In this document: positions 15,123 to 64,000 of the stretch, piece after piece
Numbering within the stretch: position 1 is the stretch's first letter
Layout: the number at the start of each line of letters is the position of its first letter
NCBI GenBank assembly: GCA_965644295.1
Contig: CBFFRP010000463.1
Span: 72,992 to 136,991, forward strand
DNA length: 64,000 nt
Direction: 5' to 3'
From: Paraphysomonas bandaiensis
Lineage: Eukaryota > Protista > Chrysophyceae
Made by a program: the position numbers and the translations under genes
The notes under the pieces: model-generated
The model's database searches: none
What the model was told of the DNA's origin: nothing
The model's input: the letters and a program-made list of their open reading frames with translations, nothing else

Positions 15123-16640
<1,518 letters not shown>

Positions 16641-43181: not shown

Positions 43182-44026
43182 AGTTCACTTGAAGGAGTTA
43201 TGTGTTTAAAGTGCTTCTATACTTGAGTATGTATATGTACACATTCATATGAACCCACAACTGACTCTCTACGTCTCTATGTACAGCAGGAGTATTACCT
43301 CGATATGTATACGTATATCTATCTATACGTATAGTAGACGTGGGAATGGACTACTGGAGGCTGTACCATACACTACATTTCCATAGTAAAATACTGCATA
43401 CTCTGATGCCGTATACATATAGCATACGTAGAGCTAAATGATGATTCGGTATAGAAGTCTTCGAGTGATGGAAATGAAAGTCAATGTGCACATTCGTTTT
43501 TGTCACAGTGATTATGTTTTCAGTTATTGTACATGTGTGACTCTGTAGGATACGAGTGAGAGTGTACAGTAGAACATGATCAGCTGTAGTATTATTGTGT
43601 TGTAGGGAGACACCATAATTTTCTATCACTAACGATTTCTGTAGTATTTGCAAAGAGACTTGTCTTTTGCCTACCTGTAGTGTAGTTTGAACGGAGGACA
43701 ACGGGCGAACTGGATCCGTGAGTGTTTGATTGATCTGTAGTATCAGTGTTGTATTTTCGATTCAAGTACGTATTTCTCTACGTGATAGGAAATTAGAGCC
43801 CGGTGCCGATCAAGACACGGTTGGGGGGGTTTTTGGTGGTTCAGTGCCAGAATGGACACAGTGGAGGGTTTTTTGCTTTTTTGGGGGGTTTTCTGATCAT
43901 TCCAACAAGCCCAAGTGTAGCTAACAAATCCATACATCAATTGCATTCGAAATAAGTCAAATATATCCACTTATTCAGTGATGAATTGTGATCCTGTATT
44001 GACTATGATGAGATATTATTTTACTT

Positions 44027-46520: not shown

Positions 46521-46929
46521 AGAAATCGGTTGTGTATTCCATATTTTTTGTGGCCGCATGTATATTATCGTTTAGTTGGGCAATTACATATCTTTAATTT
46601 TAACGAAATGTGTCTTTACTGTTGTTGAGTTGTTGCTCAGTGATAAAATTCATGCACGGTAGTGTTTAGTGTTTTAAACTGTACTTGACTAGCTAGAACC
46701 TTTGTCATACTACTAATAATATATGATCACATTAACCACTTCTTGTAATATTCTAGTTAGTTGAAATAACTTTTGTAATTCTGTGATAGCTAGATACTAG
46801 GGCTGATGTAAAAGAGTTTGAAAGTTGTCCTTATCTATACTCTATACAGTCATTGAAAATTTACATGTCATACACCCTGATAATACTAAACTGAAACCAA
46901 GACTATACACACAGAACGGGGGGTAGGCG

Positions 46930-48963: not shown

Positions 48964-49646
48964 AGGCGTCCTGGGGGCACAATAACATTACTTTAAAAGG
49001 AATAAAACAGCTATATCTTTTAGTGTGTAGTCAAAAGTCAAAAGAATATCAATACACGAATTACAACATCATTAACAGAAGCACACAAATTCACTGTTAT
49101 AAAAGTATACATAATACCAACAGTATGGAACTATTCAAGCAGCCACTAATCTACCTTCTACGAGTTACTTGTGCTCTTGCATGGCGCCATAAGATTCATG
49201 TGGCAACAAAGGCAGGGGATGTCAATCAAAGAAGATTATAGATATGCCAATATTTACTCATATATTTCTGATTCCTACACCTGTTCATCTGAAAGACTCC
49301 TATATTCGATCTCATCGGAGTATAAGAGTGGCTAGCAGGACTATGAATGCATGTTCTTCGAGATCTAGAAGCAACTGCTCCACGTTGGCCTTTTATAGCC
49401 CTAGCTGTGTCGATAGAGCATCGAGCTGGGTCCCTCGTCCAACTGGAAAGCCATTCACAGGGGAGTTGTGAACACAATGTACCTTCCTGCTTCTATATGT
49501 TGGCAGTGAGTGTGCTGTATGTTGGAAAGGAAAATGTCAGAAAACCCCCCAAAAAAGCAAAAACCCCTCCAATGTGTCCATTCTGGCACTGAACCACCAA
49601 AAAACCCCCCAACCGTGTCTTGATCGGCACCGGGCTCTAGGAAATT

Positions 49647-50183
49647 ATGAAGAAGTCGAGCAACGAGAAGCTCAAGAAGTTTAGGAACAAGGCGTTGGAC
49701 CAGCGGTCCAGGGGCCAAGGGGCAGAGGCATTGACCCCAACGGTGCCGATTCTGAAGTATGGGACGAACACCAACCTGGCGGTATTTAAGCAGAAGCTCA
49801 CAGTGGCCGCCATGATGCTATTTGGTGACCTAGCGAGGCTCGTGGAGACCGATGAGTATTATGAACCACCCAAGATAAAGATTGAGGACTACGATCTCGA
49901 TAATGACCCCCACGGTCTGAACCTGGAAGAACTTAAGGATGCGAGAAAGACACGCCAAAGGAAGATTGACCAAATGCGTGACAACCGATCAGCTTTCTAT
50001 GCGTTCATGTATGACAGACTGAGCAACGAGTCCGTGGACGCGATTAAGCAATTGGAGGAATACGAAGAGATTAACTCCTCCAAGGACCCTCTACTGTTGT
50101 GGCTTGCTATCAAGCAGACTCACAAAACAGCGACGAACTCCAATGTAGGGACCATCATGCGTGCAGAGACGAGAAAGAAGTAC
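49647..50183 (+). pseudogene. 5' part of a Ty1/copia gag, interrupted by the viral element
   Basis: VPILKYG...FGDLARLVETDEYYEPP...KDPLLLWLAIKQTH...AETRKKY resembles stramenopile copia Gag. Coding character and GC content collapse after 50183. Confidence 0.7.
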
Positions 50184-50338
50184 ACACACAGAGAGGGGGA
50201 GGGCCGAGGGGTCGCTCTAAGCCGCTTAGGCATTCTTCCTGAGCCAGAAAGGCTCTCGTATCGTAATAAAACTTCGTTTTATTACTCTTTCCTTTTCACT
50301 CTATCTTTCTTCCTTTCCACTCTATCTTTAAATATAAT

Positions 50339-50440
50339 AATTATCTTATATAATAATATTAATAATACTATACTTTAAATAAAAATTAATTATCTTATAT
50401 AATAATATTAATAATACTATACTTTAAATAAAAATTAATT
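50339..50440 (+). repeat. 49-bp tandem duplication in the viral terminus
   Basis: AATTATCTTATATAATAATATTAATAATACTATACTTTAAATAAAAATT at 50339 and 50388. Confidence 0.9.
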
Positions 50441-50566
50441 ACTTTATATAATATTAAATAATTATCTTATAATAAAATAAAAATATAGTTTTGGCATTTT
50501 GGCTTTCTGGCATTTTGGCTTTTATGAAAATTAGAAAAAGTTATAAAATAAAATTTATTATATAGT

Positions 50567-50675
50567 TTATGTTATAAAAATCCAGTGCCATAATGCCAGT
50601 TGTGGTGGTGATGATGATGGTGGTGTTGTAACAGTGATGGTTATGTTATAAAAATCCAGTGCCATAATGCCAGTT
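50567..50675 (+). repeat. 35-bp direct repeat pair flanking a 39-bp GT-rich spacer
   Basis: TTATGTTATAAAAATCCAGTGCCATAATGCCAGTT at 50567-50601 and 50641-50675. Confidence 0.9.
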
Positions 50676-50942
50676 TCTATTCAAAATATTTTTTCAAAAT
50701 AATTTATCAAAAATATTTATTCTATTCAAAATATTTATTCTATTCAAAATAATTTATCAAAAATATTTATTCTATTCAAAATATTTTTTCAAAATAATTT
50801 ATCAAAAATATTTATTCTATTCAAAATATTTATTCTATTCAAAATATTTTTTCAAAATAATTTATCAAAAATATTTATTCTATTCAAAATATTTTTTCAA
50901 AATAATTTATCAAAAATATTTATTCTATTCAAAATAATTTTT
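50676..50942 (+). repeat. Viral repeat array 1 (45-bp unit and truncated variants)
   Basis: Four copies of TCTATTCAAAATATTTTTTCAAAATAATTTATCAAAAATATTTAT, interleaved with 18- and 32-bp deletion variants. Confidence 0.95.
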
Positions 50943-51159
50943 ACGTTATTACCAATTAAAAAATTATTAAAAAGCAAAATGGTTTAAAGAGATAATTTTA
51001 AAAAGGCCATGAAAGATGTCAAAAAGAAAAAACGGATGAAGGTTAATAAATAGTTGAATACACACACGCAACAAACAATAAACAAAATAGTTTTAAAAAA
51101 TCGGCTCCTTTCTTTAAAGTATGATTAAAGTTTTAAAAAATATATAAAACAAATATATA

Positions 51160-51402
51160 ATGAGTTACACATATGTCGTTATTACAATTACAGATTTAGT
51201 TTGGAATAACACAAAAATATATGAAATTTACAAAACAAAAATCACTAATCCAATAAAGTTCTCAGAAAAGGTTGATAAAAGAATAGAGATAATACGAAAT
51301 AAAATATTTTCAGAAAATGATTATACCTCAGAAGATATTAAAAGATTTAATGAAGAAAATGAAATAAATTATGAGGAGATTGATAGTATTTATAATTTAT
51401 AA
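51160..51402 (+). CDS. Viral hypothetical protein (80 aa)
   Basis: ATG-initiated ORF preceded by the shared upstream motif. Confidence 0.6.
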   Translation: MSYTYVVITITDLVWNNTKIYEIYKTKITNPIKFSEKVDKRIEIIRNKIFSENDYTSEDIKRFNEENEINYEEIDSIYNL

Positions 51403-51422
51403 TAATTTAATGTATTAGTGTT

Positions 51423-51572
51423 TTAATTTATAAAAATTAAAACTAAAAGAAATTTTTGAGTACAATTTGATAATTTTGTATGAATAAATTTATCGTTATC
51501 TTCATCATAATAACCGTTTAATTCACTATCAACATGTCCACAACAATCAAAATATTTAATTCCATAACCCAT
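51423..51572 (-). CDS. Viral small protein (49 aa; not in the ORF track)
   Basis: MGYGIKYFDCCGHVDSELNGYYDEDNDKFIHTKLSNCTQKFLLVLIFIN, preceded by TATTTTTA-TCT-AACA-TATAT-ATATA. Confidence 0.45.
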   Translation of the reverse strand: MGYGIKYFDCCGHVDSELNGYYDEDNDKFIHTKLSNCTQKFLLVLIFIN

Positions 51573-51599
51573 TATATATATATATGTTAGATAAAAATA

Positions 51600-52397
51600 T
51601 TACTCTGTTGTTGAATCTAAACTCCATGTATCACCTGTCAATCTAAAATTGATAGTGTTAAACATAATATAACCTGCTGAGGCAATAACAATTCTTATAA
51701 TTGAATATCTTTTAGTTGTTGTAACTGCTTCAGTGAACAAAGTTGAATCTTGTGTTCCTGGAAATGCTACATCATCAATATAATTCCAAGTTGTGCCATC
51801 ATCAGAACCTAATATATAGCATGCTTTCATTGTTCTCTCTTGTGATGTGCTTCTTTCTTGAGTTGATATAGATGTTAAACGAATTTTATAAGGTAATTGA
51901 ACTTGAACCCATTCACCATCTATTGATTGAGATGTATCATATGTAGTTGAAAAATAATGATCTGTTCCATTACTACCGATGTAATTACCTGTTGTACCAT
52001 CATAAGCTTCACCAGAAGGCATAGCATAAAAAACGCCATCTCTGTAATTGTCAATACCATTTGGTCCGCTGTTATATCTGTTATTACCCCAGAACGTCTC
52101 ATCACTATCATCAAATAATAAGTTACATGAATTTAAAGGGTCGGCTCCAGTATATCTACCATATGATGAACAAATTAAATTATATGTTCCATTTGCGTAA
52201 GATGTTGAACCAGAACCGCCAGAATAAGATTTAGAAATGTGAGTATCAAAAACATCCTGACCATTAAAAGCAGTTGGAAGACCTGTAAATGATGTAGGAA
52301 AAGTGACATTTGTTTGGTATTGTGTATTTGTATTACCTTGAACGACATTGTATTTGTTAATGTGATTAGCAATATTAATAATAGAACTTAGTGACAT
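51600..52397 (-). CDS. Viral protein with discoidin/F5-8-type C (galactose-binding-like) domain
   Basis: GEWVQVQLPYKIRLTSI and ILGSDDGTTWNYI motifs; S/T/G/N-rich, like a receptor-binding protein. Confidence 0.7.
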   Translation of the reverse strand: MSLSSIINIANHINKYNVVQGNTNTQYQTNVTFPTSFTGLPTAFNGQDVFDTHISKSYSGGSGSTSYANGTYNLICSSYGRYTGADPLNSCNLLFDDSDETFWGNNRYNSGPNGIDNYRDGVFYAMPSGEAYDGTTGNYIGSNGTDHYFSTTYDTSQSIDGEWVQVQLPYKIRLTSISTQERSTSQERTMKACYILGSDDGTTWNYIDDVAFPGTQDSTLFTEAVTTTKRYSIIRIVIASAGYIMFNTINFRLTGDTWSLDSTTE

Positions 52398-52469
52398 ATA
52401 TATATTGATGTTATAAAATAATTTGTAATTTTTACATTAAATAATTATATAGTATAAATATATATAACC

Positions 52470-53525
52470 ATGAGCATTTACCCAAAGCCGAAACCATCAA
52501 ACGGAGTATTCAACCCTTCAAATTACACATATATAAAAGATAGCATTGTTGACGTTGACTTAACAGGATATATTCAAAAGAGTGGAGATGTAATGAGTGG
52601 AACTCTAGTTTTGCCATCATTGAATTTATATGGAGATGGACAAGTATCATTCAATGACAATTCAATACAAACAACAGCAATGACAGATGCTTTAAAGACA
52701 GATATTGAAAACACGAAAACAAAAGCTACTAATATTTCATATGATGGAACAAATACATCAATTTCAGGAAGTGTTGAAGTATCAAAAATAATATTTCCAA
52801 ATCTAAGTGAACAAACAGTGGCCTTTACAAATAATTTAAAAACAACATATGATAACTATGAAACAGGAAAACAAGATTTGATAACATCAGGAAATAGAAT
52901 AAGTTGTAGTTTAATAGGAGATGGATTAATAACAAATGATGAACTAAACAAACTAAATAATGTTTCATCAAACATTCAAAATCAATTAGACGCCTTAGGA
53001 CATGGTTTAGGTAGCATATCAAAATTATATGAATTTAACAAGGGTGAAATGATAGGTTATAATTCAACTAATATCACTAATGGTAATATTTCAGGAATTA
53101 TATCAGTTGGTTCTGGTGTGTTATATGCATCAAGCGTTAATATATCATATACTAGTGAATACAATGTTTTAGCGCCATATACGCCAGATGTAGATGACTT
53201 TTTTGATAACTTGGGTTATATTAAAAAATTAGGTAGATTCTTAATCATACATCAATATGAACTTGGAACACTTGAATCTATTAACCATTTTTTTACTCAT
53301 ATAGAATTACATAAAAACAATGTTTTACACAAAAAATCAAGAAAATCTGGACAACATTGGAAAGCTAATAGAGGTTCTATTGAATATATAACAGGTGAAA
53401 TTTCTTTCTACATAACTGTAGATGAATTATCAACATATGCTTTATTCTTTTATTCTGATTTTGATTTTGACGGTGCAAGCAGTGATACCACTTTAAAATC
53501 AACAATAGAAATCATACAAATATAA
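52470..53525 (+). CDS. Putative fibre/spike protein
   Basis: N-terminal MSIYPKP...VFNPSNY, fibre-type YIQKSGDVMSGTL and a short coiled segment VSSNIQNQLDAL. Confidence 0.6.
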   Translation: MSIYPKPKPSNGVFNPSNYTYIKDSIVDVDLTGYIQKSGDVMSGTLVLPSLNLYGDGQVSFNDNSIQTTAMTDALKTDIENTKTKATNISYDGTNTSISGSVEVSKIIFPNLSEQTVAFTNNLKTTYDNYETGKQDLITSGNRISCSLIGDGLITNDELNKLNNVSSNIQNQLDALGHGLGSISKLYEFNKGEMIGYNSTNITNGNISGIISVGSGVLYASSVNISYTSEYNVLAPYTPDVDDFFDNLGYIKKLGRFLIIHQYELGTLESINHFFTHIELHKNNVLHKKSRKSGQHWKANRGSIEYITGEISFYITVDELSTYALFFYSDFDFDGASSDTTLKSTIEIIQI

Positions 53526-53572
53526 AAAGAATGAATATATTTTTCTAAACAATGTTATATATACAGTATAAG

Positions 53573-54268
53573 ATGGTTGATATAGTAAATTTTTATGAAT
53601 TAGACGAAGTAAAAGCCTTTCAAACAGAATCTATTAATCCTAACTATGGAAAACATGGAATCAAAGTGCCTTTTAGAATGTTAATCGTTGGAGCATCTGG
53701 AGCGGGTAAATCAAATATAGTTTTGAATATGATTCGTATTATGAATAATACGTTTCACAAGATTATCTTGTATACAAGAAACAAGAAAGAACCGTTATAT
53801 GAATACTTAGAAAATAAGTTAGAAGACAATGATGACTTATTTGAAGTTCACGAAGGTTTAGATCATTTAAGAAGTGTTAACATTGATAAAGAATATTTCG
53901 GACAAACGCTAATTATATTTGATGACTTAGTTAATGAGAAGAATCAAGATATAATAGGTGAAATGTTCTTAAGAGGTCGCAAAATAGGTATATCATTAAT
54001 GTATTTGACTCAGAAATACGCAAAAGTTCCAACACTAGTTAGAGAGCAATTAAATTATTTAATAATGAAGAAGATAAGTGGAAAAAGAGATATAACTTAT
54101 TTAATGAGAAATCATGCTTTAAATGGAAGTATTGAGCAATTATTAAACATGTATCAGTATTGTATAGATGACAAAATAACGAACTTTTTATTAATTGATT
54201 TAGAAGCACCAAGTGAAAGAGCATTCAGAAAGAACTTCAATGATATATTAAATATAGAAGCATTTTAA
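53573..54268 (+). CDS. A32-like FtsK/HerA DNA packaging ATPase
   Basis: PFRMLIVGASGAGKS (Walker A), LIIFDD (Walker B), RGRK arginine finger, YLTQ sensor. The start at 53573 (MVDIVNFY) is preferred over 53552 from the position of the upstream motif. Confidence 0.95.
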   Translation: MVDIVNFYELDEVKAFQTESINPNYGKHGIKVPFRMLIVGASGAGKSNIVLNMIRIMNNTFHKIILYTRNKKEPLYEYLENKLEDNDDLFEVHEGLDHLRSVNIDKEYFGQTLIIFDDLVNEKNQDIIGEMFLRGRKIGISLMYLTQKYAKVPTLVREQLNYLIMKKISGKRDITYLMRNHALNGSIEQLLNMYQYCIDDKITNFLLIDLEAPSERAFRKNFNDILNIEAF

Positions 54269-54303
54269 TTATAAAAAAATATGTTGTTATTATATATAAA
54301 AAC

Positions 54304-55701
54304 ATGTTATCCAGTTTTGAAATAAGAAGATTGAGTCCAAAGGAAAGAGCAAAATATTTTAGACAAAAGGAACTAAACGACTTAAAAATATTATCAGATA
54401 TTAGTAAGAATATATCAGAAGAGCAACAACACTTAAAAGAAGGTATAACACCAGAACTAAGAGATAATAGAACATTAGCAGAAAAAGAAGAAGATAAAGT
54501 ATTACAATCACAGACAGCACAAAAGAACGCTTTGAAGTTGTTTAAAAATGACGGCAATGAGGCACAAGACTTTTTGAATAAATTAAAAAATAGTAGATAT
54601 AAAAACTTTGTTGACTTTAACAAATATTTTTTAGGTATGTTTTCTTCTTTATCTAATAAGGTAGGTAAAGTGAGAGCGCAAGAAATGTATGACTTTGTAC
54701 ATAGATATCTTGAAAATCAAAAAAACACATCAGGAATAAGAAATCTTTTATCATCAGAACAAGAAGTTGATGCAATAATACGACATTTAACTAGTATAGC
54801 GGGTATATCAAACGAAACTAAAAATGATTTAAATGATAGACTTGAAGCATTGCAACTAACTTTAGAATCATTGATTAAGAAGTATGGAGAAAGTAAAGTG
54901 AAACAAGCTTATGAAATGTCAGATTTACCTGATTTTGATGAAGAAGTTGATGAAGACACAATTGTTCCAGAAATACAAAAGATAGACAAAAATTCATTAG
55001 AAAGTTTCACAAGACAATTTCAAAATTACCCAGTTTCTGATGATTACTCAGTTTCTGATTCAATATCATCAATAACAGATCAAGATAAAGATTTTCATAT
55101 TTATAGCAACACTGATTATGACTTTAGCTTTGACGAAGAGAAAGAAGAGAAAGAAGAGACTGAGATGAAAGAAGTAAAAGAAGTATATGATGAAAAGACT
55201 CAACGAGCTATAAATAAAGTAAATTCCATGACATTAGAAGAAATGAAGGCAATGTCAGCTAATGTGGTAAGATTGATTAGAATATTGAATCAAGGAGGAG
55301 ACGAATATAAAGATAGTTCAACACGAGTTAATAAAGATGACTTGAAATCTTATAATGAAGTTGCGCCACTCTTTACACCAAAAGGCGGAAAAGCTACAGG
55401 AATACAAAAGAAGAGTTTATATAAATTTGTCAAAGACTCAGGAATCAAAACAATAGATAAAATATTAAGAGAAAGAATAGCAGAACAAGAAGGAAATATA
55501 GCAGAAGCAAAACAACCAAGAGAACCGAGAAAATCAATTACACGAACTATACACGATATAAGAAGAGAAGAAGAAATGAAAAGAAAAGATGACGATGAAG
55601 ATGAAGATGAAGTAGAAGAAGAACCACAAGAAGACATTATAAAAGATGGCAACGGATTAAATATTAAAAAGGTTGGAAGTATGAGAGTTAGATTTGGTTA
55701 A
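54304..55701 (+). CDS. Viral hypothetical helical/charged protein (465 aa), possible core protein
   Basis: Long ORF in the morphogenesis cluster; K/E/D-rich; GxG motif near the C-terminus. Confidence 0.75.
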   Translation: MLSSFEIRRLSPKERAKYFRQKELNDLKILSDISKNISEEQQHLKEGITPELRDNRTLAEKEEDKVLQSQTAQKNALKLFKNDGNEAQDFLNKLKNSRYKNFVDFNKYFLGMFSSLSNKVGKVRAQEMYDFVHRYLENQKNTSGIRNLLSSEQEVDAIIRHLTSIAGISNETKNDLNDRLEALQLTLESLIKKYGESKVKQAYEMSDLPDFDEEVDEDTIVPEIQKIDKNSLESFTRQFQNYPVSDDYSVSDSISSITDQDKDFHIYSNTDYDFSFDEEKEEKEETEMKEVKEVYDEKTQRAINKVNSMTLEEMKAMSANVVRLIRILNQGGDEYKDSSTRVNKDDLKSYNEVAPLFTPKGGKATGIQKKSLYKFVKDSGIKTIDKILRERIAEQEGNIAEAKQPREPRKSITRTIHDIRREEEMKRKDDDEDEDEVEEEPQEDIIKDGNGLNIKKVGSMRVRFG

Positions 55702-55750
55702 TATTTAATAGTATAAAATATAATATAATATAATAGTATATTATATAATA

Positions 55751-56209
55751 ATGACAATTAAAAAGAACTACAAGAAGTTTTACAAACTACAAATAAATGT
55801 AATGAAGCTATTAGACAATAAGTTAATGATATTATACGAAACAGGATCACCATTCAGCAGATATATAAAGACACAAACAATAAGCCCCGAGTTTGCGAGT
55901 GTGTTGTTAAACTTAATTGACACAAATGAACTAAATTATGAAATGATAAAACGATTAACAGAAGAAGAGAAGAAGTTATTTAACATTATAATGACACAAT
56001 CAGGAGCAAAGACAGAATTGAAATACAAAGAGCCAGAACTAACGGAAGAAGATTTATTAAAGCGATTTGAAATATTACAAGGGAGTATTCGAGCAGGAAA
56101 CAACAGTAATGAAGTATTGAAAGAAGGAATAGACATATTGAAAAGACTAAATAAGCTAGGTAGAATAGATGATGAACAGTTAAATGAAATCTTAAATAGT
56201 TTAGAATAA
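55751..56209 (+). CDS. Polinton/PLV-type hypothetical protein with AGN motif
   Basis: The C-terminal LLKRFEILQGSIRAGNNSNEVLKEGIDILKRL...GRI resembles a motif I recall from proteins encoded between the ATPase and penton in Polinton-like elements. Confidence 0.65.
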   Translation: MTIKKNYKKFYKLQINVMKLLDNKLMILYETGSPFSRYIKTQTISPEFASVLLNLIDTNELNYEMIKRLTEEEKKLFNIIMTQSGAKTELKYKEPELTEEDLLKRFEILQGSIRAGNNSNEVLKEGIDILKRLNKLGRIDDEQLNEILNSLE

Positions 56210-56247
56210 CTATTTACAAAAATTATTATATAAGTAAATATTATATA

Positions 56248-57135
56248 ATGTCAGACACAAATTATAACTACAATACAATTATATTGAATAAAAACAATAT
56301 AGTTTCAGGTTCAAAGAATTCAGTATTCAAATATACTTTTAATCAATCATTACGACTAAATGATTGTTCATTAGCTATTCAAAGCATAAATATGTATTAC
56401 AGTTGGTTTAATATATCAGATTATTTCAGAAACAATAAATTTTCATATGTATGGTTTGACAATGCAGGAGACTTGAACACAACTATAGATATTACAATTC
56501 CAGATGGATTTTATACAGTTGAATTATTGAATAAATTTTTACAATCTGAACTAGAGAAAAGGGGTCATTATTTAATTCAACAAAGCACGGGTGATTTTGC
56601 TTATCACATAGAATTCATTTCAAATGTAAGTTATTATTCAGTTCAATTGAATGTATATGCAATGATGACAGCAGCTCAAGCAGGAACAGATTTCGTCAAA
56701 GGTTCAGAGACTTGGTCTTATCCTTCAACACCAACAACACCTCAATTAGTTGTTTCAAATTCTTCTTCATTTGGAGACTTAATAGGATATTCTAATGGAT
56801 CGTATCCATCAACAGCATCAAGCACAAACACAACTTTTTTATCAGATAAGACACCAAATATGACGCCTGTTAGCTCTATAAACGTCGTTTGTTCAATGAC
56901 TACTCAAAACGGCTTTAGCAATCCTGATGGACTGTTATATTCATTTACAAGTGGCAGTGTTGAATTTGGAGGTATGATAGATAGAGAACCAAAAACAGAG
57001 TCATTTGTTAAAGTGAGAGATGCTTTATATTCAAGTTTTACAATAGAACTATACGACCAAGATATGAGAAGATTAGATATAAGAGACGCTGAAACGGTTA
57101 TAATGTTAATTATTAAGAGTCCTGATAAAGATTAA
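56248..57135 (+). CDS. Minor capsid protein (penton, single jelly-roll)
   Basis: 295 aa and beta-rich, with LAIQSINMYYSWFNIS...NNKFSY, ITIPDGFYTVELLN and a C-terminal IELYDQD...LDI, typical of Polinton/PLV pentons; lies upstream of the major capsid gene. Confidence 0.75.
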   Translation: MSDTNYNYNTIILNKNNIVSGSKNSVFKYTFNQSLRLNDCSLAIQSINMYYSWFNISDYFRNNKFSYVWFDNAGDLNTTIDITIPDGFYTVELLNKFLQSELEKRGHYLIQQSTGDFAYHIEFISNVSYYSVQLNVYAMMTAAQAGTDFVKGSETWSYPSTPTTPQLVVSNSSSFGDLIGYSNGSYPSTASSTNTTFLSDKTPNMTPVSSINVVCSMTTQNGFSNPDGLLYSFTSGSVEFGGMIDREPKTESFVKVRDALYSSFTIELYDQDMRRLDIRDAETVIMLIIKSPDKD

Positions 57136-57178
57136 AACGATATAGTATATTTTTTTATATAATACTATTATATACGAT

Positions 57179-57478
57179 ATGTCATATTATAAAATGATAG
57201 GTGGAACAATGAGAAGACAAGTAATTCCTTCTCATAGAAAAGAAATACAAGAAGAAACAAAAGAAGATAAGATAAAAGAAGACGTAATTATTGAACATAA
57301 ACAGAAAGTGGAAAACACAAAGAAACCTAATATAAGTTTAAGTGATAAACTAATGAGTATTAAGGTGAAACCAAGAACAGAAGGGAAAGGACAAGATAGA
57401 AGCAAAGATGAGTTATTTGAGCGTGTAAACAATGTATCAATGGAAAGATTAAAAAAATTTGCTAATTTAAAAGTATAG
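57179..57478 (+). CDS. Small basic viral protein (99 aa), possible processed core protein
   Basis: K/E-rich, with MIGG and EGKG motifs. Confidence 0.65.
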   Translation: MSYYKMIGGTMRRQVIPSHRKEIQEETKEDKIKEDVIIEHKQKVENTKKPNISLSDKLMSIKVKPRTEGKGQDRSKDELFERVNNVSMERLKKFANLKV

Positions 57479-57480
57479 AA

Positions 57481-57625
57481 TATTTTATTCTATTCAAAAT
57501 ATTTTTCCAAAATTATTTATTCTATTCAAAATATTCTATTCAAAATATTTTTTCAAAATATTTTTTCAAAAATATTTATCAAAAATATTTATTCTATTCA
57601 AAATATTTTTTCAAAATTATTTATT
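57481..57625 (+). repeat. Viral repeat array 2, directly upstream of the major capsid gene
   Basis: Same TTCTATTCAAAATATTTTTTCAAAA / ATCAAAAATATTTAT subunits as array 1, rearranged. Confidence 0.9.
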
Positions 57626-57662
57626 ATAAAATATTTTATAATCTAAGTATATATTATACAAT

Positions 57663-59351
57663 ATGGACAAGGCAATAGTTGACCAATCTTTTGAACAAGC
57701 ACATGAGAATGTAAGTGACTTTGTGGAGTGGGATTATAGCAAAGTAAGTGATTTGCAGACTTCTGGTAATTATAGCAGTAACCAGACAATATTTGAAACG
57801 ACCACACTCAGCAACAACGGTAAAATAACTGATTACAAAAATGGATTTTTTACAATTCCAATAGTGGATGTTGTGACTGGTGAAAACGGTGGTAATCCCG
57901 TTGACTTTACAGCAGCGCACATAAAAGAGAGTGATTTGTTACTATGTAGGAAAAATTCAAGTTTAAATATGATAGATTCAGTATCTATTCAATATCAAAA
58001 TCAAGCAGGAATTCAAGAGACAAGAAATATTAATCAATACTTAATATTTAAACAACATTCAGAAATGTCATTAGATGATGAATATGTTAACGGTCCTACA
58101 ATAGGATATGCCAAAGACACGTCGGATTCATGGAGCTATGATGAAGCTAACGGATTAATGAACAACAATAATGCTTTGAATCATTTAAATGGTATTGATT
58201 ACATAAATAAATGTAATAAAGGAATGTATGAAAGACAACAAGTTTTTAATAAAGTTGTTGATACTGCCAATTTATCTAAAAGAAATTTGGTATTGGGTAA
58301 TAATGAAAAAATTAAAGAAATGAATCGCAGTTATGTTGTGAACACTGCAACATATAAAGCCTATTATCATAATGCTATTATTCGTCTTAAAGACCTTTCA
58401 ACCATATTCGAGAAATCACCCCCAATGAAAGGTGGCCTTTTCAAAATATCAATCAATTTTAACCAGTGTATATTCAAAGTGACTAAAACAGACAACGACA
58501 CAATGTCATTTTCTCCAGCAGATTTTAACGGAAGAGGAACAAATCCTTTGATGGTTTCAAGTTCTCAATATGAAACTTTATCCGGTAGTGATAATAACTC
58601 AGTAACTTCAGACGATGTATACTGTGGTGGATACACAATTCCAGATGGAACAGTGTTGACAATTTCCAGCAATATAGCAAAACCTCAATTTTACCCACAT
58701 AATACACTTAATGTTACTCCATGTAAAGAACAGAACTGTTTTCTTCACATTCCTTCTTATACAATGAAACCTGCTCTCCAGAAAAGATATTTAGAGAGTC
58801 CACAAAAACAAGTTATATATAATGATGTTGTTTTATTTCAACTTTTCAATAAAACAGGTCAAGTTAATGAACTGATTACAAACGGCCTGTCATACGCAAA
58901 GAGAATGATTATTTGTCCTTTTATTAGCTCAGGGGCTAATGGAACAAATCAGATTCACCCGTTTCAATCACCTTTCACAACTGAACCCGCAACCTGTAGT
59001 CCTTATACCATTCAAAATCTTCAAGTTAAAGTATCATCAACTAATTTATATCCTAATCAAATTAATTATTCATATGATATGTTTATGAGAGAGTTAAATG
59101 GTAAATATGGAGTAAATTTTAACTTAACAACTGGTTTATGTAGTTCAAGAATCAATTTAAAAGACTTCATTAATACATACGGTTATATCGTAGTTGACCT
59201 AAAACGTAAACACACTGATGACGAAAGCGTCCCCTTATCTATTCAGCTTGAATGTAATATATCAAGTCCCAAACCACTTGATTTCAATATTTTTGTAGAA
59301 CAAGAGAAATCATTCGGAATTGAAGTAGCAACAGGAAAAAGAGTAGATTAA
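57663..59351 (+). CDS. Major capsid protein (putative double jelly-roll)
   Basis: 562 aa and the largest gene of the module. The N-terminal VSDLQTSGNYSSNQTIFETTTLSNNGKITDYKNGFFTIP, the internal AIIRLKDL...F...P and the C-terminal YGYIVVDL...IFVEQEK are reminiscent of PLV capsids. The ATPase-penton-MCP-protease context supports the call. Confidence 0.78.
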   Translation: MDKAIVDQSFEQAHENVSDFVEWDYSKVSDLQTSGNYSSNQTIFETTTLSNNGKITDYKNGFFTIPIVDVVTGENGGNPVDFTAAHIKESDLLLCRKNSSLNMIDSVSIQYQNQAGIQETRNINQYLIFKQHSEMSLDDEYVNGPTIGYAKDTSDSWSYDEANGLMNNNNALNHLNGIDYINKCNKGMYERQQVFNKVVDTANLSKRNLVLGNNEKIKEMNRSYVVNTATYKAYYHNAIIRLKDLSTIFEKSPPMKGGLFKISINFNQCIFKVTKTDNDTMSFSPADFNGRGTNPLMVSSSQYETLSGSDNNSVTSDDVYCGGYTIPDGTVLTISSNIAKPQFYPHNTLNVTPCKEQNCFLHIPSYTMKPALQKRYLESPQKQVIYNDVVLFQLFNKTGQVNELITNGLSYAKRMIICPFISSGANGTNQIHPFQSPFTTEPATCSPYTIQNLQVKVSSTNLYPNQINYSYDMFMRELNGKYGVNFNLTTGLCSSRINLKDFINTYGYIVVDLKRKHTDDESVPLSIQLECNISSPKPLDFNIFVEQEKSFGIEVATGKRVD

Positions 59352-59389
59352 ACAAAATATTTTTAGTATGATAATATTTAATATAAACT

Positions 59390-59414
59390 AATTATTATCT
59401 CAACATAATATATA
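59390..59414 (+). promoter_or_regulatory. Representative copy of the conserved viral upstream motif (W8-T[AC]T-N4-W5-RTATA)
   Basis: AATTATTA-TCT-CAAC-ATAAT-ATATA, 4 nt before the ATG at 59419. Equivalent copies precede nearly all viral ORFs. Confidence 0.65.
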
Positions 59415-59418
59415 TATA

Positions 59419-60207
59419 ATGCATCAAGTAAAACTCAATCTATCTGAAGCTCAATTAAGAAAGTTATCAAATGGACACAATATACAAGTTAGACCAGACC
59501 AAATCGGCTTTGGCTTTCCAGTTGCTTTATCTGACAAGAACTTGAAAAAAATTGAAAACTCTTATAATAAGTCAAAAGGAACGCGACTAACACTAGACAA
59601 TAATGAAATTGAAGGTGGCAATCTAAAACAAAACATTAGAAGTGCTTTCAATAAGACTAAGAAACAAGTTAAAAAGACATTCAAAGATCCAAACTTAGGA
59701 AGAAAGGTTAAAAATACTTCAAGAAAGGTTAAAAACACTGTCAATGATTTTGCTGTTGTTGGTGATTTAGGCATTCCCGTTGTTAGTGATTCATATAATT
59801 TATTGAATACTACTACCCGTTTAGGTGATAAGTTAGTTAGAAGTGGTGTGGACCATATTGAAGATAGAAAAGATGAAAAGAAAAGAAGTCAATTTGTTAA
59901 TGATTTTAATTCACTAAGAGAACATGCTAATACTCAATCTTCAAATTCTCCTCCAACTGAAGGAAGTGGTAATCCTTATCTTCCATCAAAGCAAGTGAAG
60001 AAAGTTAAAAATAAACTTACTACTGGCTCATCATTTAGAACATTGGGTGCTGGAGTTATAGAAGTGGATTACAAAGGAAAGAAACCCGTTAAACTTAAAG
60101 ACGATGGAAGCAATCTAGTTAGAGCTGGACATCCTGGTTTTGACCCTGGAATATCAAGTTTGCCTAATACTTGTTGTTATTGTTCTCATTGTGGAAAGAA
60201 AAAATAA
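59419..60207 (+). CDS. Basic viral protein (262 aa), putative core/membrane-active precursor
   Basis: N-terminal VKLNLSEAQLRKLSNGHNIQV; Lys-rich; several GxG/GG sites; C-terminal CCYCSHC. Confidence 0.7.
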   Translation: MHQVKLNLSEAQLRKLSNGHNIQVRPDQIGFGFPVALSDKNLKKIENSYNKSKGTRLTLDNNEIEGGNLKQNIRSAFNKTKKQVKKTFKDPNLGRKVKNTSRKVKNTVNDFAVVGDLGIPVVSDSYNLLNTTTRLGDKLVRSGVDHIEDRKDEKKRSQFVNDFNSLREHANTQSSNSPPTEGSGNPYLPSKQVKKVKNKLTTGSSFRTLGAGVIEVDYKGKKPVKLKDDGSNLVRAGHPGFDPGISSLPNTCCYCSHCGKKK

Positions 60208-60224
60208 TGTGAATATAATATATA

Positions 60225-60719
60225 ATGGATTACACAACAAGTAACATAGATTTGACACATTATCTTATGTTAAAAGGTATAAATCTTAATCAAATAGTGA
60301 GTAAGAATAAGTTATTAGGTAAAGCAAAAGAAAATGGCAATTATATTATAAACTTAGAAGATAGTGATAAAGGCATGGGTTCTCATTGGGTAGCTTTGAA
60401 GTGTTTTAAAAAAACTTGTCTATATTTTGATTCATATGGAATTGCACCTCCTAGAGAAGTTATAAGTTTTTGTAATAAGAAGAAGTTAATATATTCATGT
60501 GACCAAATACAAGGCATAAAAGACACTTCCTGTGGTTTTTATTGTGTTTACTTTCTTTATCATTTCAATAATCTAAGAAGTTTTAAAGATGATATAAGAA
60601 GTTTAGGTTATCATTTAAACTTATTTCTTAAACCTTTTGATACAAGTAACACAGAAAAGAATGTGAAGATACTAAAAAGAAGATTCAAAGAAATCTATGA
60701 AAATGACTTGAAGAAATAA
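60225..60719 (+). CDS. Adenain/Ulp1-like cysteine maturation protease
   Basis: YIINLEDSDKGMGSHWVAL (His), YFDSYG (Asp), QIQ...SCGFYC (oxyanion Gln, catalytic Cys). Confidence 0.92.
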   Translation: MDYTTSNIDLTHYLMLKGINLNQIVSKNKLLGKAKENGNYIINLEDSDKGMGSHWVALKCFKKTCLYFDSYGIAPPREVISFCNKKKLIYSCDQIQGIKDTSCGFYCVYFLYHFNNLRSFKDDIRSLGYHLNLFLKPFDTSNTEKNVKILKRRFKEIYENDLKK

Positions 60720-60778
60720 TTTTAATTTATGTTAAAGAATTATATAATTTTTTAAATCTGCAATTTATATATATATAG

Positions 60779-61324
60779 ATGAAAAAATTGACTACTCCTA
60801 GTAAACCAACAGACGCGATGCCTGAAACATATAAATCAATTGTTGAATCTGTTGAATCTGATTCAAATCCTTTTGATTCATTTAAGGCTCCTGTTATTCA
60901 AAAGCAAGAATCAATGCGTGAATTACCACCAAAAACACTTTACAATCACAATCTTAAGCGGCTTAAATCATACAGAAACTTAAGAAAGAAATATAAACTA
61001 GATAATCAAAAAACTGTATTCTTAGAAAACTTGAAAGAAACTTTAAAGCCTCTAGACCCAAGAAGCAATAAATATGATAGTGAATTATTAGTGGCTGTCT
61101 TAGATATTGCTGAATATTTTTTTATTTATGGTGATAAAGAACAAAGGAACACTATGAAAATGGAAGCTGTTGTTGAAATAATGAAACCATATTTTAACAA
61201 TGATGAAACATATTTATTGCATAGTATAAATAATGTAATGCATAAAGTTAAAAGAAGTAACATATTCAGAAGATTAGCAACAAGACTTAGAATTTTTTTT
61301 TCAATGACGATGAAAGCTTCTTAA
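60779..61324 (+). CDS. Viral hypothetical protein (181 aa), possibly extended to 61410 by a -1 frameshift
   Basis: ORF with an exact upstream motif match; it ends just after a T9 run. Confidence 0.75.
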   Translation: MKKLTTPSKPTDAMPETYKSIVESVESDSNPFDSFKAPVIQKQESMRELPPKTLYNHNLKRLKSYRNLRKKYKLDNQKTVFLENLKETLKPLDPRSNKYDSELLVAVLDIAEYFFIYGDKEQRNTMKMEAVVEIMKPYFNNDETYLLHSINNVMHKVKRSNIFRRLATRLRIFFSMTMKAS

Positions 61325-61455
61325 AGGCTCTCATTAAATCGTTGATTGTTGAGATTCTAGTTAAAGTTATTATTCAAAGAATATTCCCAATTTTATTAAT
61401 CGCATTATAAAACTATTTCATTTTATTATATATGTGTAATATATATAGTAGTAAT

Positions 61456-62142
61456 ATGTCAAAATGGATAAAACACGTAAAACAATATAGCGAACAAAAT
61501 AATATGAAGTATAATGAAGCCTTATCAGACCCTGTGTGCAGAGCATTATATTATGAAATGAAAGGTGGTGCTTTAACAGCAGATGAAACAAGAAAATTAT
61601 TAAAGTCTTCATATAATAAAAAAAACAAAGATGTAGGTAATTTTAAAGTTGATAAGCATTTATCTGGAAATAGAACAAAAGTTTATTATGATGAAGAAAA
61701 TAATATGCCCGTTGTTGTTCATCGTGGAACAAACTCTAAACAAGATGTATTAACTGATGCAGGCTTATTATTTGGACATAGAGGAAATAGATTTAAACAT
61801 GCTAAAAAAATACAAAAGAAAGCAGAAAAGAAATATGGAACTGAAAACATGCACACATTAGGGCATTCTTTAGGTGGACTCGTTGCAGAAGAAGTAGGCA
61901 AGAATTCAAAAAACGTCATTACATTTAACAAGGCAATATCACCTTTTGAAATGTTAAAAAAAAATCAATCAAATCAAACAGACATTAAAACAAGCAATGA
62001 CCCTGTATCATCATTAAATTATTTTAATAATAATAAAAAAAATAAAACTAAAGTATTTAATGCTAAAACAAATAACCCTTTTAAATCACATAGCACAGAC
62101 GCTTTGAAACATTTAAAACCTGGTAAAGTTATTGGAAATTAA
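61456..62142 (+). CDS. Class-3 lipase-like alpha/beta hydrolase with N-terminal leader
   Basis: VVVHRGT, DVLTD, GHSLGG nucleophile elbow, DPVS and a C-terminal H. The start at 61456 (MSKWIKHVK) is supported by the upstream motif, which overlaps the 61432 ATG. Confidence 0.88.
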   Translation: MSKWIKHVKQYSEQNNMKYNEALSDPVCRALYYEMKGGALTADETRKLLKSSYNKKNKDVGNFKVDKHLSGNRTKVYYDEENNMPVVVHRGTNSKQDVLTDAGLLFGHRGNRFKHAKKIQKKAEKKYGTENMHTLGHSLGGLVAEEVGKNSKNVITFNKAISPFEMLKKNQSNQTDIKTSNDPVSSLNYFNNNKKNKTKVFNAKTNNPFKSHSTDALKHLKPGKVIGN

Positions 62143-62147
62143 TATAT

Positions 62148-62531
62148 TTAAAAACAACCTGCATAAGATGTTTGTTTGGAATACTTTTTAATTACTTCTC
62201 TAGTCATTATGTGATTGTTTTCATTTTTAATTTTAAGTATGCTTTGAGGTAAATATTTGAAAACTTCTTTTTCATACCAACAAATAGGTTTAGTAAATTC
62301 AAGATGTGTTATTGTGTTAGGAATATTTTTAATAATTTTATTTAGTTTTCTCATAGATACTTCTGTATGTATCATATATTCATCACTCTTTCGAACGTTC
62401 ATGTCAAAAGGTCTTGTTAATATATAATACATTTTCGAATCTTTAAATACAATACATCTTATTTCTTTATCATTTTGTAGCTTTGAATATAAACTGTCAA
62501 TTTCTTCAATGTCAATTGTTAAAGTTTTCAT
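62148..62531 (-). CDS. Viral protein with FNIP/IP22-like repeats
   Basis: IPNTITHLEF and LPQSILKI segments. Confidence 0.5.
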   Translation of the reverse strand: MKTLTIDIEEIDSLYSKLQNDKEIRCIVFKDSKMYYILTRPFDMNVRKSDEYMIHTEVSMRKLNKIIKNIPNTITHLEFTKPICWYEKEVFKYLPQSILKIKNENNHIMTREVIKKYSKQTSYAGCF

Positions 62532-62645
62532 AATATATATATTATATATATAAAATTAGTTTTTTAAATTGTTTTATAATAAAATTATTATTTTTATTAA
62601 ATTTGAAAACTATATTTTTTATATAAACATTATTATATATACTTT

Positions 62646-62969
62646 ATGGCAGATTTTGTTATATGTTTAAAAAATGAACTCTTCGCAATACCAAAGACAA
62701 AGAAACCTCAAGTCCAAACAGAAATATCAAACATAGTAAAACAAATTGAAGGATATAAAGCCTTAATCAAAGACTTGGAAATACAGAAACGAAAAAAACA
62801 AGTTGAACTTCTCAGTGAAAGACAACAAATATATTATAAGAATCCAATCAATAGAAACTTACCAAGTGAACAACTTGAAAAAACTAAAGCTTATGAGAAA
62901 AGACAAAAGCTATTAAAAGAATATGATGATTCACACGGTTCTTATATTAAACCTGAACAAGGCTATTAA
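62646..62969 (+). CDS. Viral hypothetical coiled-coil protein (107 aa)
   Basis: ATG-initiated ORF with TATATA upstream. Confidence 0.6.
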   Translation: MADFVICLKNELFAIPKTKKPQVQTEISNIVKQIEGYKALIKDLEIQKRKKQVELLSERQQIYYKNPINRNLPSEQLEKTKAYEKRQKLLKEYDDSHGSYIKPEQGY

Positions 62970-63034
62970 TTTTTTTAAAACGTTACATATACAAATGTAT
63001 ATATAATACTAACTAACTATAATGACAACAAAAT

Positions 63035-63202
63035 TTATAGATTATACATCTTCTTATATTTCTCCATATTCATAATCATTGACTTCATCTCTTCAATCTC
63101 TTTATAACATTTCTTATGATATTCTCTTGATTCCCAATCATTGTTTATTCTTTTTATAGTTTTACCACAATGTTCGCATTTTCTTTTAATTTCTCTAGAC
63201 AT
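63035..63202 (-). CDS. Small viral zinc-binding protein (55 aa; not in the ORF track)
   Basis: MSREIKRKCEHCGKTIKRINNDWESREYHKKCYKEIEEMKSMIMNMEKYKKMYNL contains CxxC...HxxC; exact upstream motif match. Confidence 0.7.
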   Translation of the reverse strand: MSREIKRKCEHCGKTIKRINNDWESREYHKKCYKEIEEMKSMIMNMEKYKKMYNL

Positions 63203-63248
63203 GATATATAATATATATATATAATATTTTTTAAATTGTTTTATATAT

Positions 63249-63415
63249 TTTTGAAAAAATATTTTGAATAGAATAAATATTTTTGATAAATTATTTTGAA
63301 AAAATATTTTGAATAGAATAAATATTTTTGATAAATTATTTTGAAAAAATATTTTGAATAGAATAAATATTTTTGATAAATTATTTTGAAAAAATATTTT
63401 GAATAGAATAAATTA
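63249..63415 (-). repeat. Viral repeat array 3 (inverted relative to arrays 1 and 2)
   Basis: Three copies plus a partial copy of ATAAATATTTTTGATAAATTATTTTGAAAAAATATTTTGAATAGA, the exact reverse complement of the 45-bp unit of array 1. Confidence 0.95.
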
Positions 63416-63418
63416 TTT

Positions 63419-64000
63419 TTAATAATATGAACCTATATTTGATATTACTTTCGTTGGTGATGTTCCTGAATTAGTATATATTATTGTTATTGTTTGCAAT
63501 ATTGCTCCTGATGTTGTCACATCGTCTACATTAATATTTGCGAGTCCTCCTGACACATTCAACGTTTCTGAAACCGCATTAACTTTCAAGGTGTTTATAT
63601 GTGCTTTGTAACTTGATGTATCTATTATAACAGAAACTGTAAAACTTGTATTTGTTAAGTTACTTGAATTAATATTCGTTATATCAAGTTCAAAATTTGT
63701 ATCACTTGTTAAACCATTGAAATATATAATTGAACCATTGCTATAATTATATGTCAACACATTTGAAGAAAACGTATATGTTGTGCTGATGGATTCGCTT
63801 ATTTGTTTAGTTGTTATATTTCCTGTCATTGTTCCGCCTGTTAAATTCAATTTTGTATTTTCAAGTGTTGTAATATTGCCGTCTATTGTACTTAACAAGT
63901 TATCAATTGTATCAGTAAATGTATAGTTATAAACTAATTCAGAATTTAACATGTTATTTACGTCGATTAAATCATGCTTATCACTTTGTAAGTTTGTTAT
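63419..64000 (-). CDS. C-terminal part of a second fibre-like protein (start outside the window)
   Basis: The frame stays open from 64000 (ITNLQSDKHDLIDVNNMLNSELV...). KLNLTGGTMTGNI fibre motif and a T/S/N-rich beta C-terminus. Confidence 0.7.
   Translation of the reverse strand: MTNLQSDKHDLIDVNNMLNSELVYNYTFTDTIDNLLSTIDGNITTLENTKLNLTGGTMTGNITTKQISESISTTYTFSSNVLTYNYSNGSIIYFNGLTSDTNFELDITNINSSNLTNTSFTVSVIIDTSSYKAHINTLKVNAVSETLNVSGGLANINVDDVTTSGAILQTITIIYTNSGTSPTKVISNIGSYY

Follow-up and report, generated by a model that had tools for sequence, protein, structure and literature searches.

A probable Gossevirus-type Polinton-like provirus in a gag-like gene of a likely marine stramenopile, with a probable conserved -1 recoding site downstream of the protease gene

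The last 13.8 kb of a 64,000-nucleotide stretch of contig CBFFRP010000463.1 (the whole stretch analyzed is hereafter denoted the window) contain the left part of an endogenous virus, seen up to the window end, that is likely to be a new member of the described Gossevirus (GKS1) group of Polinton-like viruses (PLVs). We consider it quite probable that this virus was recently inserted in a gag-like gene of a marine stramenopile and that the gene following its protease gene likely undergoes a -1 slip on a run of nine T (T9). The observations behind this scenario are the gene set, the folds predicted for both capsid proteins, the gag allele that is empty elsewhere, the presence of the same viral terminus on other flanks, and the conservation of the T9 run together with a -1-frame tail. 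Judged from sequence comparison, the last of these features looks like a conserved case of programmed -1 recoding that would yield a short protein and a second form with a membrane tail.

The virus begins at position 50182 or 50184, both being compatible with the data because the AC at 50182-50183 matches the gag as well as the viral terminus. At this border the GC content changes sharply: it is 40.9% in 1-50183 and 50.1% in the gag-like open reading frame (ORF), and drops to 27.1% in 50184-64000, in agreement with the sharp junction described in the initial annotation. From 51160 to the window end, we identified 17 non-overlapping ORFs of at least 55 amino acids (aa), with a coding density of 90% from 51160 onward; all are open, the last one being cut by the window end, and homologues were detected by BLAST in the fetched loci for 14 of the 17. 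The tight packing and the lack of introns claimed previously thus hold, the ORFs having no internal stops, and the number of ORFs is 17 at this length threshold rather than at least 18. Pfam matches in the viral part are to an A32 ATPase, an adenain, an F5/8 type C domain and, weakly, an alpha/beta-hydrolase.

The gene set includes a Polinton-like morphogenesis module, as originally proposed. The A32-type genome-packaging ATPase (53552-54268, forward strand) matches Pox_A32 in Pfam with E 5.4e-17 and has homologues in 128 loci, and the adenain-type cysteine protease (60225-60719, forward strand) matches Peptidase_C5 (E 4.1e-5) with intact catalytic residues, His54, Gln96 and Cys103 being invariant in all 8 aligned proteases. 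For the two capsid proteins, structure prediction gave a jelly-roll fold in each case. The model of the major capsid protein (MCP; 57663-59351, forward strand), which is of the double-jelly-roll type, was built from a 74-sequence alignment (pLDDT 89, pTM 0.89) and matches in Foldseek the MCPs of mavirus (E 4e-13), faustovirus (E 1e-12) and Sputnik (E 2e-12) at 9-10% identity; the corresponding VIA comparisons gave Z 19.1 to faustovirus (root mean square deviation, rmsd, 4.9 with 365 aligned residues) and Z 17.9 to the Sputnik MCP (rmsd 4.0 with 400 aligned). The penton (56248-57135, forward strand), a predicted single jelly roll with an insertion domain (AlphaFold2 pLDDT 95, 106 sequences), matches the pentons of mavirus (E 5.5e-9), adenovirus, Sputnik and PBCV-1, with a VIA Z of 11.5 to the mavirus penton (rmsd 6.8, 242 aligned). 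A double-jelly-roll MCP, a penton and an A32 ATPase are among the traits by which PLVs in the broad sense are recognized, together with a genome of 15-40 kb that has terminal inverted repeats, a replicase and an integrase, of which the first 13.8 kb fall within the window.

A motif search in the accessible part of the supplements of PMC10120064 retrieved a row labeled "GKS1 Gossevirus MCP type" that is collinear with the window MCP. In a comparison made by eye over the first 400 of the 576 residues, which is not a hidden Markov model (HMM) score, the two proteins agree at 16 of the 18 columns that are invariant or nearly so within the first 390 residues, the exceptions being L242 and L361, and two blocks, of 19 and 27 residues, align without gaps. 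A motif search for the MCP in the part of the PMC7805220 supplement that could be accessed gave no relevant row. As described in the available portions of PMC10120064, PMC7805220 and bioRxiv 10.64898/2026.06.19.733378, Gosseviruses are PLVs that have a cysteine protease among their core genes, in many cases also encode a lipase or phospholipase, and are found in oomycetes and chrysophytes; the window fits this gene profile in encoding a cysteine protease and a lipase-like protein. The virus is therefore likely a new member of a described group, and the "undescribed lineage" put forward in the initial annotation is not borne out. The host is likely a chrysophyte: the RIO2 protein encoded on the host side is 100% identical to protein P0191, which carries an MMETSP label, and the named rows among 120, which are two only, are ochrophytes with 55-61% identity.

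It appears extremely unlikely that the element is a virophage (Virophaviricetes) akin to mavirus or Sputnik. All four morphogenesis genes are present, the best Foldseek matches are to mavirus (MCP and penton) and Sputnik (MCP), and one Atlas cluster scores 0.97 with Sputnik MCP Pfams on 29% of its members; however, the identity to the mavirus and Sputnik MCPs is as low as 9-10%, and the 74-sequence MCP profile has no match among PDB sequences at E <=10. Moreover, none of the 74 profile members matches the virophage MCP Pfams at E <=0.1 (these serve as proxies for the ICTV HMM; PMC9952930, seen in part), which agrees with the earlier view of the capsid as PLV-type rather than virophage-type. 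It also counts against a virophage that the published GKS1 capsid model matches Sputnik by Foldseek (PMC10120064, accessible part).

The MCP profile matches 138 sources in the six-frame set, the window included. The gene order ATPase-x-x-penton-x-MCP-x-protease-frameshift gene is found in loci L001, L002, L014, L016 and L019, and the closest long relative, L001, has the same gene order and a capsid protein 49-50% identical to that of the window. The accession prefixes of L001 and L002 gave no match, and hence no host, in the accessible part of the PMC10120064 supplements. Close relatives (L001, L005/L013, L014/L019) exchange replication and integration modules: L001 encodes an integrase of the rve family (E 1.3e-9) with a chromodomain and a helicase-like protein of the origin-binding type, L005 encodes a 1026-aa helicase, and L014 and L019 encode D5 helicases, that of L019 being a primase-helicase. 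L019 also carries an ORF without a Pfam match that, from its motif, we take to be tyrosine-recombinase-like. No pPolB was found in the annotated relatives, which have helicases instead, and searches of the viral contigs with the MCP, the terminus or the fibre gene did not recover the right half of the element.

The target of the insertion is the 5' part of a retrotransposon gag-like ORF (49647-50183, forward strand), interrupted by the virus in the window and uninterrupted in public runs X1, X3, X4, X5 and X7. Six runs (these five and X9) were compared, all as assembled contigs, the pieces listed being 32 of about 700 in one comparison. For each of X3, X4, X5 and X7, one contig agrees with the gag as far as 50183 and extends beyond it by 586 to 2058 letters without the virus; in X1, X4, X5 and X7, the loose ends listed show this in-frame continuation of the gag as well, with one difference in X1. 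Thus, the gag allele is empty in five of the six runs; among the matches listed for X9, there is no gag piece. Runs X1, X4, X5 and X7 show the viral terminus, ACACACAG, attached to five or more distinct flanks. Given that the gag is empty in five of the six runs and the terminus joins other flanks, the virus appears to belong to a multicopy family and to have been inserted recently and in a lineage-specific manner, which supports the recent insertion envisaged in the initial annotation. Depth is about 10 times higher in the virus contigs listed than in host contigs of single copy (166-198 versus 13-21 in X4 and 52-103 versus 5-8 in X9), which is a rough guide and not a copy number. Three further runs presumed to be RNA contain 0.29-0.30 of the sequence words and another three below 0.1, and nothing on expression or habitat is deduced from them. 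With regard to the target itself, the proposed insertion of the virus in a copia gag stands only as an insertion at a gag-like ORF: we take the ORF to be a gag by its resemblance, its 179 aa have no Pfam match, so that the copia label is not substantiated, and the remainder of this retrotransposon lies outside the window. The Pfam-confirmed Copia reverse transcriptase belongs to a neighboring element (46926-48966) separate from the interrupted gag.

The left terminus (50182-50670, unstranded) starts with ACACACAG at 50184 or two bases before, contains direct repeats of 49 and 35 nt, and probably represents a terminal inverted repeat, the right copy of which would lie beyond the window; the same motif is present on other flanks. 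The other copies also end in ACACACAG, having three or four AC units, and diverge in the 30 purine-rich bases that follow (50182-50220 in the window). Terminal dinucleotide repeats of this kind recall slide-back priming.

Conceivably, the virus family is real and the junction at 50183 is an assembly chimera between a high-copy or free virus genome and the gag. Such an artifact would account for the lack, among the matches listed in the six runs, of any contig that bridges the gag-virus junction, and for the single contigs in X3, X4, X5 and X7 that cross 50183 without the virus. We nevertheless regard it as highly improbable: the joint lies exactly at the terminal motif that is common to other flanks, the gag and the terminus share at most 2 bases, the adjacent Copia element is likewise missing from some of the runs, and strain-specific insertions are usual in related elements (PMC8547959, seen in part). 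Because the joint is located exactly at the element end and offers no usable overlap, the better explanation is likely a genuine insertion confined to a single strain or cell line.

A different question is whether the provirus, intact in the part seen, is a defective or inert copy that makes no particles. This appears unlikely, if by no means negligibly so. The replication and integration genes are not visible in the window, copies vary by deletions, and one ORF, of 351 aa, is shorter than its homologues; conversely, all 17 ORFs are open and the core genes have the length of their homologues, in accord with the lack of decay reported before for this part of the element, and the insertion sites differ between samples.

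The gene that follows the protease (60779-61324, forward strand) encodes an unknown protein of 181 aa, the short frame-0 product, which belongs to a family of 299 representatives. Six codons before the stop it reads ATT TTT TTT TCA, the T9 run at 61293-61301 (forward strand) providing a candidate -1 slippage site, U_UUU_UUU in frame 0; no other run of at least eight T occurs in the viral part. A stop closes the -1 frame two codons 5' of T9, and the frame then stays open for 36 codons up to 61410, encoding a hydrophobic 36-aa extension without Met (61300-61410, forward strand; maximal Kyte-Doolittle 19-mer 2.2). The predicted long form would thus likely comprise about 210 aa and include a membrane helix.

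A profile search gave 14 homologues including the window, of which 9 were kept after 3 duplicates and 2 sequences cut by contig ends were dropped. In 7 of the 9 complete homologues, a T9 or T10 run lies 0-7 codons from the stop and is followed by a -1 tail of 37-46 aa, the -1 frame being closed 2-9 codons 5' of the run. The arrangement is that expected of a recoding site, with an in-frame slippery heptamer just 5' of the frame-0 stop and conserved coding in the shifted frame. Such runs are rare in other genes. No T9 was found in the 99 other ORFs of these elements; a T8 run with an open -1 frame occurs at 6 of 1292 distinct ORF ends, all in the frameshift gene (the window copy falls below the length cut-off); and among 720 Phe-Phe sites in 1171 ORFs, 9 are encoded by T9 or longer runs, 7 of these in the frameshift gene. 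One further ORF end with T9, in L149, was dismissed as a likely shadow ORF without a hydrophobic tail. In a leave-one-out test of the tails against 25,872 stop-to-stop segments, 6 of the 7 ranked first (E 3e-10 to 1e-5), leaving aside a partial duplicate in L019. The differences between tails are distributed over the three codon positions as 0.59/0.29/0.66, and 112 of 211 identical residues are encoded by different codons, in an alignment that is protein-guided and hence biased toward this pattern.

The larger protein family points in the same direction. At E <=0.001, the family profile retrieved 299 representatives, and among the best 150 of these, 139 reach the profile end, a set that takes in the family of the window itself and part of the training sequences; in 99 of the 139, FF is present within the last 14 residues, compared to 89 of 1366 control windows and none of 73 capsid and 109 penton homologues. 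In proteins P0365 and P0374, FF is immediately continued by the tail in the same frame (E 2e-11 and 2e-12, respectively, to a profile made from -1-frame tails only), and P0461, a cluster mate of P0374 that is distinct and comes from another source, also has the tail in frame. These proteins may be natural fusions or run-length variants, and in either case they tie the tail to this protein. Of the 33 near-identical proteins, 15 are listed, and all 15 share one frame-0 end position with the same length after FF; therefore, the stop in the window is not a homopolymer error. In a FastTree phylogeny of 98 capsids, the frameshift gene is confined to one group with two subclades (support 0.99 and 1.0), the union of which reaches only 0.63 with midpoint rooting; T9 is found in both, and the window is the sister group to L001 and L002.

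Several observations weigh against this interpretation or against the scenario as a whole. The two closest relatives of the window have A-runs instead of T-runs, namely A_AAA_AAG with a -1 tail in L002 and A7 with a +1 tail in L001, both tails being 72 aa long with a Met at position 10. An early Met (position 9-12) is present in 3 of the 7 T-run tails. The window tail is the weakest in the leave-one-out test (rank 3, 12.4 bits, E 0.15). No conserved downstream stimulatory RNA structure was detected by pseudoknot-free folding (z from -2.9 to +1.4, with 1 of 18 folds below -2). Beyond the frameshift gene, the Gossevirus assignment depends on a partial comparison by eye, the host assignment on two named rows, and the insertion on a junction for which the matches listed include no bridging contig, and the right end, the target-site duplication, the integrase and the replicase all fall beyond the window.

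Some of these points would also fit a separate small gene in the hydrophobic -1 frame, expressed from its own Met or by re-initiation, with the T-run used otherwise, for example, as a terminator; the early Met residues, the +1 tail of L001 and the lack of an RNA stimulator all speak for it. Poly-T transcription termination occurs in some large DNA viruses. On this account, however, one would not expect a tail devoid of Met, as in the window, L014 and L019, or with a late Met only, as in L006; nor a -1 frame shut shortly 5' of the run; nor a run that lies inside the ORF before its stop and is missing from all 99 other ORFs; nor in-frame fusions exactly at FF. We thus consider a separate gene to be distinctly improbable. 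The conserved recoding signal is well supported by the comparison of homologous sequences, and it is probable, somewhat less so than the scenario as a whole, that an entire subclade of protist Gosseviruses uses -1 recoding on a U9 run in a gene of the morphogenesis module to produce a soluble protein and a rarer membrane-anchored one. No earlier report of a Gossevirus frameshift was found in the literature searched, with subscription papers and supplements mostly outside the reach of the search; the words "frameshift" and "slippage" do not occur in the main text of bioRxiv 10.64898/2026.06.19.733378 in the part available.

The family of the frameshift protein has no convincing match in Pfam, PHROGs, NCBIfam, PDB sequences or the Atlas, which does not imply a novel fold. 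Similarity to the phage tail assembly chaperone TAC_12 (PF12363) was rejected: in a comparison with 8 phage proteins and controls, the HHalign probability was 1.2% and the score 16.6, against a maximum of 16.4 for shuffled profiles and 22.7 for the MCP control, and 4 of 99 members match the Pfam family weakly (best E 0.008). A likeness to LL-H-type holins was dropped as well, this family not being among the best 25 of 86 Pfam families at E <=5. In L019, a GIY-YIG endonuclease gene (15263-15916) directly follows the frameshift gene and is itself followed by a duplicate of the last approximately 20 codons of the -1 tail, as if the endonuclease gene had homed into this site.

Under the scenario we favor, a provirus with a slip site after the protease gene, integration would be mediated by a virus-encoded integrase located beyond the window, probably of the rve type as in L001, with little target specificity. 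The provirus would remain silent and, upon induction, form an icosahedral particle from MCP trimers and a penton carrying fibre and discoidin proteins, with packaging by the A32 ATPase, maturation by the adenain protease and membrane passage aided by the lipase. By analogy, induction would probably require giant-virus infection, as described for mavirus-like elements (PMC8547959) and suggested for Gosseviruses (PMC10120064), both sources having been seen in part. Most products of the frameshift gene would stop at 181 aa and end in a basic amphipathic helix, and a minority would slip by one base and acquire the hydrophobic helix of 36 aa, so that a form anchored in the membrane would be made in a small, fixed proportion. 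Because no conserved downstream structure was detected, either a ribosome slipping unaided on U_UUU_UUU or a polymerase slipping on T9 would be enough, and we slightly favor the polymerase. More tentatively, and with somewhat less than even confidence, we propose that the protein is a scaffold or egress protein, the rare anchored form of which ties assembly to a membrane.

The remaining viral genes fill the space around the morphogenesis module. Closest to the left terminus, an 80-aa accessory ORF (51160-51402, forward strand) has no homologue in the fetched loci and is skipped in some copies; contig joints in X1, X3 and X4 omit 51080-51607, and the small accessory ORFs at 51080-51607 and 62578-63417 are both missing from some copies. 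It is followed by a gene for a 265-aa protein with an F5/8 type C (discoidin, galactose-binding) domain (51600-52397, reverse strand; Pfam E 3.6e-9; homologue in L002), likely a receptor-binding protein, and by that for a 351-aa protein (52470-53525, forward strand) with a likely fibre role, the homologues of which in L001, L002 and L019 are longer (586-652 aa). Between the ATPase and the penton genes, there are genes for a 465-aa charged protein with an N-terminus conserved within the clade (54304-55701, forward strand) and a conserved unknown 152-aa protein of the capsid module (55751-56209, forward strand; homologues in 117 loci). A 99-aa basic ORF (57179-57478, forward strand) separates the penton from the MCP and has no BLAST match; the relatives have an ORF of 73-82 aa at the same place. 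The MCP gene is followed by that for a 262-aa basic protein (59419-60207, forward strand; homologues in 36 loci), a likely core or DNA-binding protein in view of its composition and position.

Downstream of the frameshift gene, the lipase-like alpha/beta hydrolase (61432-62142, forward strand; homologues in 20 loci) contains the GHSLG motif, which is compatible with its previous assignment, and has a weak Pfam match (Abhydrolase_5, E 0.007); the L019 homologue matches Lipase_3 (E 0.006). The next ORF (62148-62531, reverse strand; 127 aa), an accessory one without a homologue in the fetched loci, had been read as an FNIP protein, which was not confirmed, there being no FNIP match in Pfam at E <=1. 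The last three are a 107-aa ORF (62646-62969, forward strand) with 49% identity to an ORF in L001, a 55-aa ORF containing Cys and His (63035-63202, reverse strand), and the 3' end of a large fibre-like gene that leaves the window (63419-64000, reverse strand; homologues of 1085-1120+ aa). A TATA(TA)-like run lies within about 15 bases 5' of most viral start codons (51115-62646) and of the MCP genes of five relatives, and, in DNA this AT-rich, is no more than a possible promoter.

Three repeat arrays, A, B and C, consist of one AT-rich unit. Array A (50675-50942, forward strand) is formed by units of 13-45 nt around TTCTATTCAAAATA, with 8 exact copies of this motif, array B (57479-57637, forward strand) is located immediately 5' of the MCP gene, and array C (63242-63426, reverse strand) is inverted relative to the other two, with 130-nt arms 96% complementary to 50813-50942. 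The exact TTCTATTCAAAATA motif is absent from L001-L017. The outer two arrays flank the capsid block, and an inversion of this block would place the large fibre-like gene 5' of the discoidin and ATPase genes, as in L002; the order in L001 also matches an inverted capsid block, without the discoidin gene. The arrays may be inversion mediators, enhancers or origins.

On the host side, the virus is located at the edge of a transposon nest. The adjacent internally deleted Copia element (46926-48966) has 299-nt long terminal repeats that are 99% alike around an ORF for reverse transcriptase and RNase H (RVT_2, E 1e-20), is high-copy in the runs, is missing at this site in X3 and X4, where the joint skips 2039 bases, and is longer inside in X4 and X9. 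A pair of 103-nt inverted sequences (43794-43896 and 49537-49639) is 97% complementary, and the second copy ends 7 bases 5' of the gag start. At 38936-40152 (reverse strand) and 44708-46296 (forward strand), there are degenerate pieces of Copia pol (RVT_2, E 9e-7) and what is left of a MULE/SWIM transposase. Farther away, 25089-28780 consist of a long array of 81-nt units resembling C2H2 zinc fingers, open for 536 aa and followed by an in-frame stop and decaying copies.

Endogenous Gosseviruses of stramenopiles are already known, and the insertion alone is a good and ordinary example. No Gossevirus isolate is described in the accessible parts of the Gossevirus literature examined, and with its open genes, many copies and sample-specific sites, the present family would be well suited in practice to a first attempt at induction. 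Of greater consequence is the frameshift, as it would imply that about 300 protein clusters annotated only as hypothetical hide a product with a membrane tail, and it suggests that such viruses pass through a membrane step during assembly or exit. The distinction between ribosomal and polymerase slippage may show which polymerase, that of the host or that of a giant virus, transcribes these viruses. If the interpretation is correct, a eukaryotic jelly-roll DNA virus would possess a counterpart of phage G/GT that is invisible to gene callers and could be tested in a marine protist with a public transcriptome, in which the provirus family is mobile and multicopy.

Among known systems, the endogenous mavirus-like elements (EMALEs) of Cafeteria resemble the window virus in being multicopy and AT-rich, in encoding the same four morphogenesis functions, and in inserting at sites that vary between strains, show no sequence preference and often lie in repeats or genes; they differ in the MCP family, in a giant-virus dependence that for the present virus would hold by analogy only, and in hosting retrotransposon insertions, whereas here the virus is inside a retrotransposon (PMC8547959, seen in part). 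Mavericks/Polintons and adintoviruses (Polintoviricetes) share the adenain-bearing morphogenesis module and, with the relative L001, the rve integrase, and differ in pPolB, in place of which the annotated relatives have helicases. The closest resemblance is to Gosseviruses, which have the GKS1-type MCP, penton, A32 ATPase, cysteine protease and lipase and are endogenous in stramenopiles; as in the window, the GC content falls at their borders and retrotransposons are located nearby, and chrysophyte genomes carry 33-104 MCP copies of all types each (PMC7805220, PMC10120064, bioRxiv 10.64898/2026.06.19.733378; accessible parts). For the frameshift, the nearest precedent is the -1 sites predicted by KnotInFrame in the penton and hexon-adenain genes of adintoviruses (PMC11071296, seen in part), which rest on structure prediction and involve other genes, whereas here conservation and in-frame fusions are the evidence. 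Unlike other sampled Gosseviruses, which have MCPs about 25-32% identical to that of the window, the window belongs to a subclade with 32-50% identity, and within the fetched loci, a frameshift gene following the protease is found only in this subclade. In phage gpG/gpGT, a small morphogenesis gene has a conserved -1 shift close to its end, with a short and a long product made at a set ratio, and alphavirus 6K/TF involves a U-rich heptamer and an altered membrane topology. The likeness to both systems is a functional analogy only, not homology (the TAC_12 profile-profile probability being 1.2%), and in contrast to phage G/GT, the slip described here would operate in a virus with a jelly-roll capsid and a eukaryotic host.

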